The notes below the pieces were generated by a model. The model had not been told where the DNA came from, did not search any database, and saw only the letters and a program-made list of their open reading frames with translations. From Desulfobaccales bacterium (lineage in GTDB: Bacteria > Desulfobacterota > Desulfobaccia > Desulfobaccales > 0-14-0-80-60-11), in NCBI GenBank assembly GCA_052326585.1, contig JBKQLU010000066.1, positions 47,167 through 111,166 on the forward strand: a stretch of DNA of 64,000 bases. The letters are read 5' to 3'. The translations under genes and the position numbers were made by a program. Positions within the stretch are counted from its first letter, which is position 1. Each line of letters opens with the position of its first letter. This document shows, piece by piece, positions 15,257-57,922 of the stretch.

Positions 15257-16633
15257 ATGTCAAGCATTTGGGAAGCGGCCAAAGAGGTCATCAAGGGCGA
15301 GGTACCCTCCTCCACCTTCCACCTGTGGATCGAGCCCCTCCAGGTAGAAAACGGTCCCGGAGGCGAACTGCTGCTGGCCTGCCCCAATCCTTTTTCCATG
15401 AGATGGGTTCAGGGCCATTATCTGCCGCTAATCCGGCAGGCCCTGGAAAACCTGGGGCAGACGCCGCCGGGGGTGGCCTTGAAATTGCTCAACGCCCCTC
15501 CCCGGCCGCCGGTGATGCCGCGGCCGACCCAGCCGGCCTTGCCGCAAATGGCGCCGCCAACCCGCCAGAGCGGTCTTAATCAGGCCTTCACCTTTGATAA
15601 ATTCGTGGTCGGGGCCTCCAACCGCCTGGCCTATCAGGCTTCCCGGGCCCTGGCCAGGGATGACACCTTTTATAACCATCTCCTGTTCATTACCTCCAGC
15701 CCCGGTCTGGGCAAGAGCCATCTATCTCAGGCCATGGGCAACTTTATCAGCCAAACGGCCGGTGGCGGCAGGGTCTTGTATCTCACCGCGGAGAGTTTCG
15801 CCAACCAGATGGTAAGGGCCTTGAAAACTGGGCAGATGGCCGATTTCAAGGAGCGCTTCCGCCGCGACTGCGACATTCTGCTCCTGGAAGAGGTCCAGTT
15901 TTTAAGCGGCAAAGAGAAGATCCAGGCGGAGGTATGCTACACCCTGGATACCTTACTGAGCCGCCGCAAACGGCTGGTCTTCACCAGTTGTTATCTCCCC
16001 GGGGAGATCAGCCAACTTTCCCAGGAACTCCGTTCCCGGCTCACCGGCGGGGTCATCACCCCCATCGGCCCGCCGGACTTCCCCACCCGGGTGAATATCC
16101 TGGCCAAAAAGGCCGAGAGCCGGGGGGTGCAGGTCTCGGTGAAGATCCTGGAATACCTGGCCGAATACGTCAGCGGCGACGTCCGCCGCCTGGAGAGCGC
16201 CCTGGACTGCCTGCTGGCCCGGGCGTCCCTGCTCAGCCAGAGCCTCAGCCCATCCATGGCCCGGGAGGTCCTCCAGGACTTGCAGGCCGTGTCCAGCCGC
16301 CTGAGCATCCCGGAGATCCAAAAGATTATCTGCGACTATTATGGGGTGGGCCTGGCGGAACTCTTGGGGCGTTCCCGCCAGAAGCGGCTGGTGCGGGCCC
16401 GGCAGCTAGGTTTTTATTTAGCCCGCCTCTATACGGAAAAGACGCTGGCGGAGTTGGGGCTTCTCTTTCAGAGGAGCCACGCCACCGTGGTGCACGCCTT
16501 GCAAACCCTGGAGCGGGAACGCAAGACCAATCATCGCCTGTCCCAGGAAGTGCAGCTTCTGGAACAAAAGTTGGCCCAGGCGCAAGTCAGGTGGGGGTCG
16601 AAACCAGCATCCACTCTTCGCATTGATGCTTGA
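15257..16633 (+). CDS. dnaA: Chromosomal replication initiator DnaA or DnaA paralog with atypical motifs
   Basis: Domain I Trp, FTFDKFVVGASNRLA, PGLGKSHL, LRSRL and domain IV ARQLGFYLAR..RSHATVVHA. Confidence 0.85.
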   Translation: MSSIWEAAKEVIKGEVPSSTFHLWIEPLQVENGPGGELLLACPNPFSMRWVQGHYLPLIRQALENLGQTPPGVALKLLNAPPRPPVMPRPTQPALPQMAPPTRQSGLNQAFTFDKFVVGASNRLAYQASRALARDDTFYNHLLFITSSPGLGKSHLSQAMGNFISQTAGGGRVLYLTAESFANQMVRALKTGQMADFKERFRRDCDILLLEEVQFLSGKEKIQAEVCYTLDTLLSRRKRLVFTSCYLPGEISQLSQELRSRLTGGVITPIGPPDFPTRVNILAKKAESRGVQVSVKILEYLAEYVSGDVRRLESALDCLLARASLLSQSLSPSMAREVLQDLQAVSSRLSIPEIQKIICDYYGVGLAELLGRSRQKRLVRARQLGFYLARLYTEKTLAELGLLFQRSHATVVHALQTLERERKTNHRLSQEVQLLEQKLAQAQVRWGSKPASTLRIDA

Positions 16634-46987: not shown

Positions 46988-47341
46988 ATGGGAATTGATT
47001 TTGAAACGCTGATCATCCTTTTGGTGCTGGCCTTCATCCTCTTCGGACCCCAAAAACTGCCGGAATATGCCGCCAAACTGGGGTGCCTGATCGCCAAGCT
47101 GCGTGAGGCCAGCTCGGAGCTAAGCCGGCAGTGTCAGACCTCCTTTCCCGATCTCATACCGCCGCCGCCACCAACCGGCGTCAACCAGCCTGCTCCCTGG
47201 CAGCCGCCGCCGACCCCGCCAACCCTCGCCTGCCCCAAGTGCTCCCGGGAACTGGGGCCGGATTTCGCCTTTTGTCCCCATTGCGGCCACCACCTGAAGG
47301 AAGATGAGGAGGCGCCGCCGCCCCAGCCGCCGGCCTCCTGA
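46988..47341 (+). CDS. TatB/TatA-like subunit with Pro-rich linker and C-terminal zinc ribbon
   Basis: TM-FGPQKLPEYAAKLG..LR; tail CPKC-x10-CPHC. Confidence 0.82.
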   Translation: MGIDFETLIILLVLAFILFGPQKLPEYAAKLGCLIAKLREASSELSRQCQTSFPDLIPPPPPTGVNQPAPWQPPPTPPTLACPKCSRELGPDFAFCPHCGHHLKEDEEAPPPQPPAS

Positions 47342-53267: not shown

Positions 53268-54254
53268 TTAAGCATGGGGAAGCTCTCCCGGGGCAGAATC
53301 CCGCCGCGGCCGGCGGCTGTCATAGGCCCGGATAATATCCTGCACCAGAGGATGGCGCACCACGTCCCGCTCGCTGAAATGCACCTGGGAGATACCCTCC
53401 ACCCCCTTAAGCAAGTCCCGGGCTTCCACCAACCCGGAGGTCACCCCGGCAGGCAGGTCGATCTGCGTCACATCCCCGGTGATCACCGCCTTGGACCCGA
53501 ACCCCAGGCGGGTAAGAAACATCATCATCTGCTCGGAGGTAGTGTTTTGAGCCTCATCCAGGATGACAAAGGAGTCGTTCAGGGTCCGGCCCCGCATGAA
53601 GGCCAGGGGGGCCACCTCGATGATGCCCCGCTGCACCAAACGGCTGGCCTTCTCGAAATCCATCATGTCGTGCAGGGCGTCGTATAGGGGCCGGAGATAA
53701 GGGTTGACCTTTTCCGCCAGGTCTCCGGGCAGGAAACCGAGCTTTTCTCCGGCCTCCACGGCGGGCCGGGTGAGGACGATGCGGATGAACTCCTGGTTCA
53801 TCAGGGCCGCCACCCCCATGGCCATGGCCAGATAGGTCTTGCCGGTGCCCGCCGGTCCCACCCCGAAGACGATGTCGTGGATGCGCATAGCCTCGATGTA
53901 GCGTTTCTGATTGATGCTCTTCGGCGAAATGCGCCTCTTCATGGAGGAGATATAAACCGTGTCCATGAAGATCTCCTTGATCGACGCGGTCTCCCGGTCC
54001 TGGAGAATCCTGATACTATACTGCACATCCTGGGGCAGAAGCGGGTAGCCGTGGCGCAGCAACTCGTAAAGCTCCAGCAGGACCCGCTGGGCCAGATGAA
54101 CATCGGCCTCCGAACCTTCAAAGGTCACTTGGTTGCCCCGCACCGGCAGCTTGACCCCCAAGGTGCGGCTGATGATACGCAGATGCTTGCCCTGTTCCCC
54201 GAACAGGGCCTGGGCCAGGGCGTTATCTTCAAAGGTGAGTTGGGTGGTGGCCAT
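53268..54254 (-). CDS. phoH: PhoH-like ATPase (YbeZ)
   Basis: [28 protein letters not shown] and LDEAQN. Confidence 0.95.
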
Positions 54255-54264
54255 GGTATCGGTT

Positions 54265-54717
54265 TTAGGCGAGGCAGTCTTCACGCGGTGGGGCCTGTAA
54301 CCCCAAAACCTGGCCCCCAATCTGGCGCTGCCGGGGCCGGTTGTCAAAATCGAGGAGGACGATCTGCTGCCAGGTGCCCAATTGGAGCCGCCCCTGGTCG
54401 ATGGGAATGCTCAGCGAGGGTTTGAGGAAGGCCGCCCGGACATGTGCATAGCCGTTGCCGTCACCCCAGCGGCGGTCATGCCCGTAGTCCAGGTCTTGGG
54501 GGAAAAGCCGCGCGATGGCGGCCTGTAAATCCTGCACCACACCGCTCTCATATTCGATGGTGGTCAAGGCCGCGGTGGAACCGGAAATGAACAGGGTCAG
54601 CAAGCCCGCGCTCACCCCGGTGTCGCGAACCTTGGCAGCCACCTGCGGGGTCAGGTCCAGAACGTCGGTGCCGGCCGTAGTTTCCACCTCTATAGTGAAC
54701 GACTGCAAAAAGAACAT
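54265..54717 (-). CDS. yjbQ: YjbQ/UPF0047 family protein
   Basis: [16 protein letters not shown] and LGTWQQI..DFD. Confidence 0.9.
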
Positions 54718-54936
54718 CGCTTCGGGCAAATTCTCACCGGAATCCGCAGCCAGTTGCCATTACTGCGGTGGCGTCAGCGCTGCTTCTAATTTTCTCATAA
54801 TCTTATCACTTAGCAATCCACTCGTGGCGATATTTTTTGTTTTAGCAGTGAAAATTTTTAATCCGGGGCTGAATTCCGGTTCTTTTTTTCCGGTCTTCCT
54901 GGTTTAACCGTGGAGCTGCCAAGGCCGGTATCTTTT

Positions 54937-54992
54937 GTAGGGGCGGGGTTTCCCCGCCCAAGGCAAGCCCACAGGCCAGAGGCCTGTGCCAC
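54937..54992. repeat. Composite REP elements in the yjbQ/lysS divergent gap
   Basis: GTAGGGGCGGGGTTTCCCCGCCC (54937-54959) and CACAGGCCAGAGGCCTGTGCCAC (54970-54992; same family as 6985-7007). Confidence 0.75.
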
Positions 54993-55105
54993 TGAGACGC
55001 CGCCCCTCCGGACGCGATGGAATCGGGAATCAACTATGTATAATTCCTTTATTTTGACGGCTTGCCGCGCGTCCCGGCTCCCCAGCCGCCCGGCTCCATT
55101 AAGGC

Positions 55106-55134
55106 TTGACTAAGGCCCCTGAATAATCTAAAAA
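55106..55134 (+). promoter_or_regulatory. Putative sigma70 promoter of lysS
   Basis: TTGACT-N17-TAAAAA, about 55 bp upstream of the TTG start. Confidence 0.45.
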
Positions 55135-55190
55135 TTTGGAGTTTGAGAAAATTGATGCCGCGATATCTCCTCCGGGAAACAGGCTGAAGC

Positions 55191-56681
55191 TTGGCGCTAT
55201 CCGACCAGATCAGAAGTCAACGTCTTAAAAAGCTAAAAGAGCTGCGGGACCGGGGAGTCGACCCCTTTTCCAACCGCTTCGCGCCCAGCCATAGCATCGC
55301 CCAGGTGATCAAGCAATTCGGCTCCCGGACCAAACCCGAATTGGAGCATCTGAGTGATAAGAGCTTCAAACTGGCCGGGCGCCTGATGCTCCTCCGGGAG
55401 TTCGGCAAGACCTGCTTCGGCACCCTCCAGGATGGCGGCAGCCGCCTGCAGATCTACCTCCAGCGGCAGGTCCTGGGCGAGGAGGACTATGCCTCCTTCC
55501 AGCGCTTCATCGATCTGGGGGACATTATCGGGGTGGCCGGCACCCTGTTCCGCACCCGGACCGATGAACTCACCCTGGCGGTTAAGAGCTTTGTGCTCCT
55601 GACCAAGTCTCTGCGGCCCCTGCCGGAGAAATACCACGGCCTCAGCAATGTTGAGACCAGGTATCGCCAACGCTACCTGGACCTGATGGTTAATCCCGAG
55701 GTGCACCAGGTCTTCGAGACTCGGACCAAAATCATCCGCACCATTAGACAATTTTTCGATAAGAAAGGATTTTTAGAAGTAGAGACCCCAATGATGCAAC
55801 CCATCCCGGGGGGAGCCACGGCCAAGCCTTTCGTTACTCACCACAAGGCCCTTGGCATGAAATTATATCTGCGTATTGCCCCGGAACTCTATTTAAAGCG
55901 CCTGGTGGTGGGCGGAATTAACAAAGTTTACGAAATTAATCGCAACTTTAGAAATGAAGGGCTATCTATTAAACATAATCCGGAATTTACTATGTTAGAA
56001 TTTTATCAAGCTTACGCCAATTATAAATATCTTATGACGATTACTGAAAAACTTATCCAAACTATTGCTAAGAATAGCATAGGGACCCTTTGTTTTAAAT
56101 ATCAGGGCCAGGATATTGATTTAGAAGGCAGATGGCGCAGGATTGATCTGAAAGAATCGTTAATAAAGATTGGTAACATAACCCCTGAGATTGTCAATGA
56201 CGAGGAAAAACTTATAGATTTTGCCAAGGAGGCGGGGGTGGAACTGCGCCAAGGCGAGGGTTACGGCCGGGCCCTGACCAAGCTCTTCGATCTCAGGGTC
56301 GAGGAGCAACTCTTGCAGCCCACCTTCATCACCGGCTACCCCCTGGAGACCTCTCCCCTGTCCCGCAAAAATGATAGGGACCCTAAAGTGGTCGACCGCT
56401 TCGAACTCTTCATTGCCGGCCGGGAGATGGCCAATGGTTTCTCCGAGCTCAACGACCCGGTGGACCAGAAAAAACGCTTCGTCAGGCAAATGCAGGCCCA
56501 CAAGGCTGGGAACAAAGAGGCCCCTCACGCGGTGGACGAAGACTTTATCCAGGCCCTGGAGTACGGCCTGCCGCCCACTGCCGGGGAGGGCCTCGGCATC
56601 GACCGCCTGGTGATGCTCTTGACCGATGCACCCTCCATCCGGGATGTCATTCTCTTCCCGCTGCTCCGGCCGGAAAGGTAA
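55191..56681 (+). CDS. lysS: Lysine--tRNA ligase (class II)
   Basis: OB-fold, RYRQRYLDL, YLRIAPELYLK, FRNEG..HNPEF and GLGIDRL..IRDVILFP. Confidence 0.98.
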   Translation: MALSDQIRSQRLKKLKELRDRGVDPFSNRFAPSHSIAQVIKQFGSRTKPELEHLSDKSFKLAGRLMLLREFGKTCFGTLQDGGSRLQIYLQRQVLGEEDYASFQRFIDLGDIIGVAGTLFRTRTDELTLAVKSFVLLTKSLRPLPEKYHGLSNVETRYRQRYLDLMVNPEVHQVFETRTKIIRTIRQFFDKKGFLEVETPMMQPIPGGATAKPFVTHHKALGMKLYLRIAPELYLKRLVVGGINKVYEINRNFRNEGLSIKHNPEFTMLEFYQAYANYKYLMTITEKLIQTIAKNSIGTLCFKYQGQDIDLEGRWRRIDLKESLIKIGNITPEIVNDEEKLIDFAKEAGVELRQGEGYGRALTKLFDLRVEEQLLQPTFITGYPLETSPLSRKNDRDPKVVDRFELFIAGREMANGFSELNDPVDQKKRFVRQMQAHKAGNKEAPHAVDEDFIQALEYGLPPTAGEGLGIDRLVMLLTDAPSIRDVILFPLLRPER

Positions 56682-56686
56682 GCCCC

Positions 56687-57922
56687 TTGGCCTATTTTGA
56701 AACCTTCGTGGCCCTGCGCCTCCTGCGCGGAGTTAAACGCCAGAGAGGCTTCCTGTCACTCAGCACCTTCATCTCCATGGCCGGAGTGGCAGTGGGGGTG
56801 ATGGCCCTCATCGTGGTCATCGGGGTGATGACCGGCTTCACCCAGGAGCTGCGGCGGAAGATTCTCAGCGTCAACGCCCACATCCTGGTCCTGAGACAGG
56901 GAGGCCCCTTTACTTCTTACCAGAAGGAGATGGCCGAAATCGAGGCGGTCCCCGGGGTGCTGTCCGCCGCCCCCTTTATCTACACTCAGGTGATGTTTTC
57001 GGCCCCGGGCAACATCTCGGTCGGGGTGATCCGGGGTCTCGACCCGAAGACCATCAGCCGCGGCGGACCCCAGGGCCTGAAGGTAATCCAGGGGCATTTT
57101 ACCGATCTGGCCGAGTTCGCGCCGGATGAGCCCCCCCCCATCGCCATCGGCACCGAAATGGCCCGTAATCTCAATCTCAGGCCGGGTGACTACCTGAACA
57201 TCATCTCCCCTTTGGGGACCCTGACTCCCATGGGACGCATGCCGCGCATGAAGGCCTTCCGGGTGAGCGTCGTATTCTACTCCGGCATGTATGAATTCGA
57301 TAATAGCCTGGTCTTCACCGGCATTCCGGCCATTCAGGAATTTCTCGGCCTGGGCCGCCGCATCACCGGCCTGGAAGTGGAAATCCGGGATATCTATGCC
57401 GCGGAAGCGCTGCAGGAGCAGATCATGGCGCGCTTAGGCCCCGGTTATTACTGCAAAAACTGGATGCAAATGAACTCCAGCCTCTTCGCGGCCCTGAAGC
57501 TGGAAAAGATCACCATGTTTATCATCCTCACCCTCATCGTATTGGTGGCGGCCTTCGGCATCGCCAGCACCCTGTTCATGATGGTTATGAAGAAGACCCG
57601 GGAGATCGCCATCCTCAAGTCCATGGGAGCCACCCGGCAGTCGGTCATGCGCATCTTCATCCTGAACGGCCTGGCCATCGGCGGCCTGGGGACCCTGGTG
57701 GGCCTGGGCCTGGGCCTGGGGCTCTGCGGGTTGCTGGAAAAATATGAGTTTATCAAGCTGCCCGCCGGGGTATATGGTCTCTCCACCCTGCCGGTGCGGA
57801 TCCAGAGCCTGGACGTTCTGACCATTGTGCTGGCCGCCATGGCGATCAGTTTCCTGGCGACCTTGTACCCCTCCTGGCAGGCGGCCCGGTTGGATCCGGT
57901 GGAGGCCATCAGGTATGAGTGA
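56687..57922 (+). CDS. lolE: Lipoprotein-releasing ABC transporter permease LolE/LolC
   Basis: GVAVGVMALIVV..VMTGF, EKITMF, EIAILKSMGA and ATLYPSWQAARLDPVEAIRYE. Confidence 0.93.
   Translation: MAYFETFVALRLLRGVKRQRGFLSLSTFISMAGVAVGVMALIVVIGVMTGFTQELRRKILSVNAHILVLRQGGPFTSYQKEMAEIEAVPGVLSAAPFIYTQVMFSAPGNISVGVIRGLDPKTISRGGPQGLKVIQGHFTDLAEFAPDEPPPIAIGTEMARNLNLRPGDYLNIISPLGTLTPMGRMPRMKAFRVSVVFYSGMYEFDNSLVFTGIPAIQEFLGLGRRITGLEVEIRDIYAAEALQEQIMARLGPGYYCKNWMQMNSSLFAALKLEKITMFIILTLIVLVAAFGIASTLFMMVMKKTREIAILKSMGATRQSVMRIFILNGLAIGGLGTLVGLGLGLGLCGLLEKYEFIKLPAGVYGLSTLPVRIQSLDVLTIVLAAMAISFLATLYPSWQAARLDPVEAIRYE

Follow-up and report, generated by a model that had tools for sequence, protein, structure and literature searches.

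Mosaic genes formed by homologous recombination between species are familiar from bacteria, for example the penicillin-binding protein genes of Streptococcus and Neisseria. For aminoacyl-tRNA synthetases (aaRSs), two divergent forms with the same function have been described within one higher taxon, with one form per genome and a distribution that is patchy relative to the organismal tree; homologous recombination replaces such homeoalleles while the syntenic context stays the same (Andam and Gogarten, Biol Direct 2011, PMC3191353). As outlined in that paper, homeoalleles are whole genes of about 29% identity that are swapped via recombination in the flanking genes. Here, we analysed an AT-rich stretch ("the patch") in lysS, the gene for lysyl-tRNA synthetase (LysRS), of a Desulfobaccales bacterium (assembly GCA_052326585.1). 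The window, i.e. the whole stretch of DNA that was analysed, comprises 64,000 nucleotides (positions 47,167–111,166 of contig JBKQLU010000066.1, hereafter C66), and lysS is located at 55191–56681 on its plus strand. The original prediction, made by reading the sequence alone, had placed an AT-rich island at 55741–56222 and offered three explanations for it: (i) an intragenic replication origin or unwinding element; (ii) a cis element or internal promoter; and (iii) a recombination patch from a low-GC lysS. The observation is confirmed and the interpretation is partly supported. Probably, the middle part of lysS exists in two old allele forms that are exchanged by intragenic homologous recombination within the genus and the family, and the AT-rich stretch is the hallmark of one of them.

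The locus resembles the aaRS homeoalleles outlined in PMC3191353 in that lysS occurs in two divergent forms, one per genome, with a patchy distribution and the same synteny; it differs in the unit involved, which is an intragenic segment of about 490 bases with 61–69% protein identity to its counterpart and a 30-point drop in GC content. Exchange of whole genes was not found, as only residues 184–345 and about 41–60 of the protein differ by type and the rest follows the species clades. Like the mosaic genes of Streptococcus and Neisseria, lysS has divergent, sharp-edged blocks in an otherwise species-typical essential gene, with the reading frame kept and the blocks shared across species. Unlike in those genes, the block also differs in base composition, there is no known selective agent or donor, and the two forms are as old as the genus. 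The literature searched contained no report of an AT-rich or mosaic lysS segment, the homeoallele paper being the only relevant one.

Composition of the AT-rich patch

The lysS open reading frame (ORF) starts with TTG and is intact over 496 codons, without a stop or frameshift, as judged from the ORF list and the translation. Two Pfam domains were detected in the product, PF01336 at residues 60–136 (E 4.6e-11) and PF00152 at residues 154–491 (E 9.6e-91), and the closest solved relative is LysRS 3a74 (E 4e-164, residues 3–493). The full-length similarity, with an N-terminal OB-fold anticodon-binding domain and a class II catalytic domain, assigns the predicted product to the class II (IIb) LysRSs. 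The source assembly (G000; 59.7% GC, 3.51 Mb, 81 contigs) holds one full-length copy of the gene.

The G+C counts of the original prediction were reproduced exactly: 52 of 180 bases at 55921–56100 (0.289), 185 of 480 at 55741–56220 (0.385) and 40 of 60 at 55381–55440. Windows of 180 bases that are as GC-poor as 55921–56100 make up 0.19% of the assembly (6590 of 3,499,957). The G+C content at third codon positions (GC3), determined in 30-codon windows, was 0.73–0.97 before 55700, 0.23–0.47 at 55851–56240 and 0.7–0.9 beyond 56240. The recovery takes about 10 codons near 56225, in agreement with the return of GC-rich codons near 56223 noted before. At first codon positions the G+C content (GC1) falls from 0.6–0.7 to 0.33–0.43 in the patch. 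Given the patch's own amino acids and the genome-wide codon usage, a GC3 of 0.74–0.76 is expected, as compared with 0.27–0.34 observed; by the same expectation the flanks should have 0.79, and they have 0.79–0.80.

The patch consists of two AT-type blocks around a GC-rich island, all on the plus strand. Block 1, the 5' part, spans 55740–55784 (residues 184–198; GC3 0.27 versus 0.74 expected), and block 2 spans 55857–56225 (residues 223–345; GC3 0.34, and 0.22 in the related locus L006, versus 0.75–0.76 expected). Block 2 contains the RNEG...HNPEFTMLEFYQAY region, which we take to be motif 2, followed by a variable region at residues 276–345. The island between the blocks, at 55785–55856 (residues 199–222, the PIPGGATAKPF region), has a GC3 of 0.68 both in the source lysS (L001) and in L006, and of 0.5–0.92 in 12-codon windows across the six genomes that carry the patch (see below); the GC-rich stretch previously seen at 55801–55860 is thus real. 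The island as a trait of any low-GC lysS was considered and rejected, since 31 low-GC lysS genes average a GC3 of 0.40 there and 0.33–0.35 beside it. A second carrier-specific block was found in the protein alignment at residues ~41–60 (55311–55370, plus strand), which read IKQFGSRTKPELE..SDKSFK in carriers versus IEEYGS.SGEQL..-..FR in non-carriers and outgroups. Its GC3 is 0.75–0.82, so that its third positions are not AT-rich.

Genome-wide, 131 of 2685 long GC-rich ORFs hold a 40-codon window with a GC3 of at most 0.35, and most of these windows sit at the ORF start, in stop-to-stop upstream sequence. The lowest window internal to an ORF whose remaining codons have a GC3 of at least 0.75 is that of lysS (0.20, codons 220–350), and the scan for internal AT troughs in GC-rich ORFs gave no comparable case in a core gene. 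One other internal trough has a minimum of 0.20 or less: a short dip to 0.13–0.17 in L185 (G000:C21:47702–49312, minus strand, 537 codons), an ORF with a weak PMT_2 glycosyltransferase match. The assembly has 132 regions with a 180-base window of at most 33% GC, the lysS patch being the only one on C66. Several of the low-GC regions cluster over kilobases and are probably acquired islands (e.g. C13:69855–74088, C54:8326–10694 and C23:35857–37182).

The patch is shared by several species and conflicts in history with its flanks

Relatives were searched for lysS in 31 genomes, nearly all of which have one full-length copy, and codon alignments were made for 20 loci from the genus, family and order. 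A GC3 trough (0.20–0.40) with the same sub-structure was present in lysS of G000, G009, G010, G013, G007 and G001 and in none of the 14 other loci. The GC3 profile proposed as a check in the original prediction thus shows the trough in 6 of the 15 genomes of the genus, among them G009, a single contig of 3.45 Mb. These carriers are referred to as group A and the non-carriers of the same genus as group B. A DNA search with block 2 against 69 genomes of the family and 83 of the order returned matches over at least 324 of the 369 bases in the same six genomes only; the remaining matches, 68–79% identical, were limited to the conserved first part of the block, about 180 bases (264 at most). The same form was found in two metagenome contigs (L132 and L133) and about nine metagenome proteins. 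In four assemblies of the genus, G002, G003, G004 and G005, lysS (e.g. L028 and L047) is in pieces that lie in different frames, with stops in two; these assemblies have few contigs and low completeness, and the fragmentation looks like assembly indel errors, not pseudogenes. Two frameshifted assemblies of the genus were checked and had no trough.

Similarity changes abruptly with the type of the block. Protein identity between groups A and B is 0.61 over residues 241–345 versus 0.77–0.84 in the flanks; over the same residues the identity of group B is 0.77 with other genera and 0.72 with the other family. L001 and L007, a non-carrier of its own clade, share 0.84/0.85 of their nucleotides in the flanks and 0.56/0.61 in the AT blocks, whereas L001 and L006, a carrier of the other clade, share 0.80/0.78 in the flanks and 0.96/0.73 in the AT blocks. 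The 0.96 identity of block 1 between the two clades argues for common descent and not convergence. Over codons 31–75, which include the second carrier-specific block, nucleotide identity drops to 0.62–0.66 for L001–L007 and stays at 0.83–0.84 for L001–L006.

Separate trees of the patch and of the rest of the gene, as proposed with the original prediction, gave conflicting histories. In the patch trees all AT-type sequences form one clade (support 100 and stem 0.35 in the quick analysis; support 100/96 and stem 0.43 in the careful one). For the lysS flanks, the careful tree divides the genus into two supported clades that each mix carriers and non-carriers: L010 and L011 (group B) with L006 and three metagenome carriers, and L007–L009 (group B) with L001–L005 and three more carriers. 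The metagenome protein P0013, also a carrier, groups with another genus in this tree. As a reference for the history of the carriers we used the LolC/E-like permease gene (FtsX and MacB_PCD domains by Pfam; 56687–57922, plus strand), which starts 5 bases past the lysS stop and lies downstream of lysS in all 20 loci compared. Its tree places L001–L005 with L007–L009 (100/100) and L006 with L011 (95/93), and the tree of the unlinked rpoB gene separates G011 (non-carrier) and G001 (carrier) from seven others of both types (100/100). By all three references (rpoB, the neighbouring gene and the lysS flanks), the deepest split of the genus has carriers on either side, each time beside non-carriers.

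The conflict was assessed with the approximately unbiased (AU) test, with carrier groups that were defined by the GC3 trait itself or taken from the reference trees. A single clade of carriers was rejected for the LolC/E-like gene (p 1.5e-74) and, with P0013 included, for the lysS flanks (p 5e-4); conversely, a species-like clade of L001–L005 with L007–L009 was rejected for the patch (p 1.5e-4). The patch is real DNA that is common to several species, and its history conflicts with those of its flanks, the next gene and rpoB. The internal breakpoints, at which similarity and composition change sharply with the frame kept, and the significant conflict of the segment tree with those of flanking and unlinked genes are as expected of a mosaic gene.

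In the proposed explanation, both forms would circulate in the Desulfobaccales-like genus and its family, and recombination inside lysS would have placed or replaced them. The AT-type form would comprise residues 184–198 and 223–345 around a GC-type island, linked with the block at residues 41–60, and would encode a complete, constrained, divergent version of the segment of the catalytic core that extends from residue 184 to the end of the variable region (276–345). The ratio of non-synonymous to synonymous divergence (dN/dS) in that variable region is 0.24–0.26 among carriers and 0.27–0.38 among non-carriers, and this similarity indicates that the variant protein is under ordinary constraint. 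The blocks at residues 41–60 and in the patch may be co-adapted parts of the enzyme. Most likely, the segment has no function as DNA and acts as coding sequence for a variant LysRS.

Age, source and persistence of the AT-type form

Synonymous divergence (dS) in the L001–L006 comparison is 1.0–1.6 in the patch versus 0.8 in the flanks, and for the two non-carrier lineages the divergence of the patch is close to that of the flanks. Since divergence between lineages is at least as large in the patch as in the flanks, both forms are about as old as the genus. Outside the genus, lysS of G048 (L029, on contig C3) has a milder trough in the same places, at residues 176–345, with a GC3 of 0.40/0.67/0.57/0.46 in the blocks versus 0.78. 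It carries the carrier-derived residues up to about residue 320 and is non-carrier-like after that; it falls into the AT-type clade when the patch is analysed (96, quick tree) but not with the C-terminal flank, as does P0013. The G048 gene is thus a different mosaic of the same two forms, and the AT-type allele is present in at least three genus backgrounds. The 3' edge of the patch lies near residue 345 in L001–L005 and near residue 355 in L006, which fits repeated exchange at different breakpoints. Of the third explanation offered originally, recombination is supported; a recent, clean transfer is not, and the patch nests in its own order, no low-GC donor having been found. The patch is rather an old allele form, found in six of the 15 genomes of the genus, as a milder version in another genus and in metagenome proteins.

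Several observations weigh against the exchange of two old forms. When only the lysS flanks are tested within the genus, a single clade of carriers is not rejected (p-AU 0.14), partly because these flanks include the second carrier-specific block at residues ~41–60; this block is common to carriers of both clades, and hence the flanks are not free of allele-type signal. A common, AT-driven amino-acid make-up could inflate the support for the carrier clade in protein trees. No donor was found, and no parental lineage of the divergent block could be identified: the best non-carrier proteins are 62–66% identical over residues 241–345, and outside the carriers nothing exceeds about 66% there. The 15 AT-type proteins seen are all mosaic themselves, with a fraction of the residues F, Y, M, I, N and K of 0.36–0.41 in the patch versus 0.19–0.26 in the flanks. 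Instead of grouping with low-GC lineages, block 2 nests within its own order (96/97) when 28 lysS genes of other lineages are added. These data leave room for rapid in-place divergence as the ultimate origin. Finally, the composition has changed too little: even from a start at zero, the substitution regime of the flanks predicts a patch GC3 of at least 0.42–0.53, as compared with 0.25–0.28 observed at comparable sites. When changes were polarised by parsimony on the six carriers, which yields small counts, those from A or T to G or C (W→S) were less frequent per site in block 2 (18 changes at 48 sites) than in the flanks (18 at 17; p 0.002), and those in the opposite direction (S→W) were more frequent per site (7 at 14 versus 33 at 164; p 0.035).

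Wider searches returned no closer relative of the patch. A HMMER search of 1.84 billion representatives gave at most 75% identity over partial stretches and about 60–64% over the whole patch. A scan of genome contigs with the universal motif, with the own genus left out, gave nothing closer among the matches listed, and in a scan of metagenome contigs with the variable region of the carriers only L132 and L133 were carriers, low-GC lysS genes being at most 46% identical. Viral contigs gave zero matches, and among plasmids and phages all matches but one were below 60% identity. A word-indexed protein search was done with residues 183–345. Its candidate P0002 was rejected as the top relative, as it scored highly only because the region is present twice. 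P0002 itself (554 residues, labelled as a partial ligase-related protein, from a Haliangium metagenome-assembled genome) is LysRS-like, with the stretch from motif 1 to the variable region duplicated; one copy is at the start of the protein and the other in a complete catalytic domain that is longer by about 50 residues, and the protein may be a fusion or an assembly artefact.

The source of the AT-type form would be either an unsampled relative or replicon within the order, or an in-place AT-ward burst in one lineage followed by spread. In the former case the AT-rich composition would have arrived with the allele, from a low-GC relative or replicon of the order. The strong divergence from the GC-type form would now bar recombination with the alleles of neighbours, so that the form persists as a block. 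The GC island looks like a retained or re-acquired host-type piece that was inherited with the mosaic by all carriers. The amelioration model of Lawrence and Ochman applies to compositionally atypical acquired DNA. The patch is like such DNA in that its GC3 and codon usage misfit the host and W→S exceeds S→W in block 2 (18 versus 7), i.e. some drift toward GC is under way. It differs in that it sits in a core gene, replaces homologous sequence and decays more slowly than the flank regime predicts. The slow decay is the one feature that could conceal something new.

A two-state estimate under the flank regime demands a negative, and thus impossible, ancestral GC3 for the patch. The GC3 of 0.22–0.34 has been kept through about one synonymous change per site against a host usage of 0.75, and the implied equilibrium GC3 is 0.43 for block 2 versus 0.78–0.91 for the flanks. 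The patch turns over at a rate similar to that of the flanks and behaves as stationary at its own composition. Tentatively, the low GC could be actively held, either by selection for the AT-rich run of rare codons or for the variant enzyme, or in a recombination-free island at mutational equilibrium. The substitution bias would also follow if the patch had been imported later and independently from a diverged low-GC source; no such source was seen.

Of these possibilities, selection for the AT-rich, rare-codon composition itself, with the allele spreading because it is useful, is doubtful. It could act through a run of slow codons that tunes the synthesis or folding of LysRS, through a composition-dependent region for RNA decay or protein binding, or through a variant enzyme favoured by an inhibitor, with the AT-richness hitch-hiking. 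The low GC3 at a patch dS of 1.0–1.6, the impossible ancestral value, the difference in equilibrium and the presence of the allele in at least three genus backgrounds are all in line with it. On the other hand, the carriers share no conserved motif, promoter-like site or DnaA box, an Rfam scan of 54000–57500 gave nothing inside the patch, the operon is the same but lacks the patch in nine of the 15 genomes of the genus, and the polarised changes, few in number and inferred by parsimony from six sequences, run toward GC in block 2.

That the patch is at an AT-biased mutational equilibrium without selection is unlikely. A divergence of about 40% from the GC-type allele would block recombination, and the patch would hence escape GC-biased gene conversion, which is taken to drive GC3 in these organisms and would maintain the high GC of the flanks. 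The close flanks of L001–L007 (dS 0.40) and the stationary, flank-like turnover of the patch agree with this. In the L001–L005 comparison dS is 0.52–0.67 in the patch versus 0.26 in the flanks, as if gene flow homogenised the flanks only. However, recombination among carriers of the same population would still permit biased conversion, and the equilibrium accounts for the persistence of the composition, not for its origin. Exchange between two old forms remains the preferred explanation of how the patch came to be where it is.

Other readings of the patch and neighbouring genes

An internal promoter for the downstream lolC/E–lolD genes, the second of the original suggestions, is very unlikely. 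The short distance to the LolC/E-like gene and promoter-like matches at 56191–56220 (plus strand) and 56027–56000 (minus strand) are compatible with it. However, promoter and terminator counts are at the level of shuffled sequence (three promoter-like sites in 3 kb versus 2.0 ± 1.3), the plus-strand site occurs in L001 only and the minus-strand site in three of the six carriers, and no site occurs in at least four; no sigma-70-type −35/−10 hexamers stand at a conserved position among the carriers. Moreover, gene order is unchanged in non-carriers, which lack the patch. A function of base composition as such would be compatible with these results.

It is highly improbable that the patch is an assembly chimera or came recently from a distant low-GC phylum; the original prediction had named a chimeric assembly and a recent horizontal transfer among its refuting conditions. 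Such a composition would be usual in a low-GC genome and the source assembly is in 81 contigs, but six genomes, one of them a single contig, and the metagenome contigs L132 and L133 carry the patch. Contigs from other samples span 55100–55958 and 55904–56615 without any difference and so bridge both edges, and sequence from a run of a different study extends over the 5' edge into part of the patch. A distant source is contradicted by the nesting of the patch in the clade of the order, apart from the 28 other lysS genes, which include low-GC ones, and by residues 183–275, which are 0.85–0.87 identical to the family versus 0.68–0.81 to other lineages.

The probability of an intragenic replication origin or DNA-unwinding element is close to nil. 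Bacterial origins (oriC) have DnaA boxes, DnaA-trios and an AT-rich unwinding element, and the patch is like them in offering an AT-rich stretch of about 370 bases with a near-consensus DnaA box and then CTA-TTG-CTA, while dnaA lies on the same contig. The box, TTATCCAAA at 56053–56061 (plus strand) followed by CTATTGCTA, is indeed at the position given originally, and, as also noted then, there is no cluster of boxes, this 8-of-9 match being the only one in the patch. We judge it a chance match to the consensus, from which it differs by one mismatch: the same codons read CTAATCCAA in L002, CTCATTAGA in L005 and CTTATTAAA in L006, i.e. three of the other five carriers have a changed box, and the window has nine one-mismatch boxes versus 5.8 ± 2.8 in shuffled sequence, with 18 of 100 shuffles reaching nine. 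Unlike oriC, the patch lies inside an ORF, has neither a box cluster nor conservation among relatives, is absent from sister species (nine of the 15 genomes of the genus lack it in the same gene) and is far from dnaA in G009. Carriers use identical codons at conserved residues in a fraction of 0.76 in the patch versus 0.80–0.82 in the flanks, and synonymous sites diverge at least as much in the patch as in the flanks; in these alignments the patch has neither a conserved DnaA box nor a conserved promoter-like site, and nucleotide conservation in it is not unusually high. GC skew was weak and noisy on C66 and in 20 samples of 20 kb from G009, so that no origin could be located with it in the two genomes.

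A search of the source genome with PF00308 (Bac_DnaA) gave one match, dnaA at 15575–16060 of the window (plus strand; C66:62741–63226, E 2.2e-45), about 40 kb upstream of lysS. In G009, dnaA (C1:1065118–1065603) and lysS (C1:3216250–3217737) are 1.29 Mb apart. The two spacings imply a large rearrangement between close species, or that one of the assemblies is mis-joined. Upstream of lysS, the gap at 54740–54919 is GC-poor (0.42), and terminator-like hairpins with T runs are present at 54767–54784 and 54863–54883. The Rfam scan gave a far sub-threshold match outside lysS (anti-hemB, E 0.37).

Mosaic essential genes and alternative aaRS forms were already known, and lysS is thus a well-documented case and not a new principle. 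In uncultured Desulfobaccales-like bacteria of peat and soil, this core gene of translation exists in two deep forms at the sub-genic level, and these extend across the boundaries of species and genera. The finding is relevant wherever such genes serve as phylogenetic markers, and for composition-based binning and chimera checks. An AT-rich block and GC-rich flanks in the same gene, with the same expression and in the same genomes, make a compact natural test of how a high GC3 is upheld, by codon selection, biased gene conversion or mutation. If the patch is indeed a recombination-free island, one gene would display base composition both in the presence and in the absence of the force that maintains a high GC content in these genomes.

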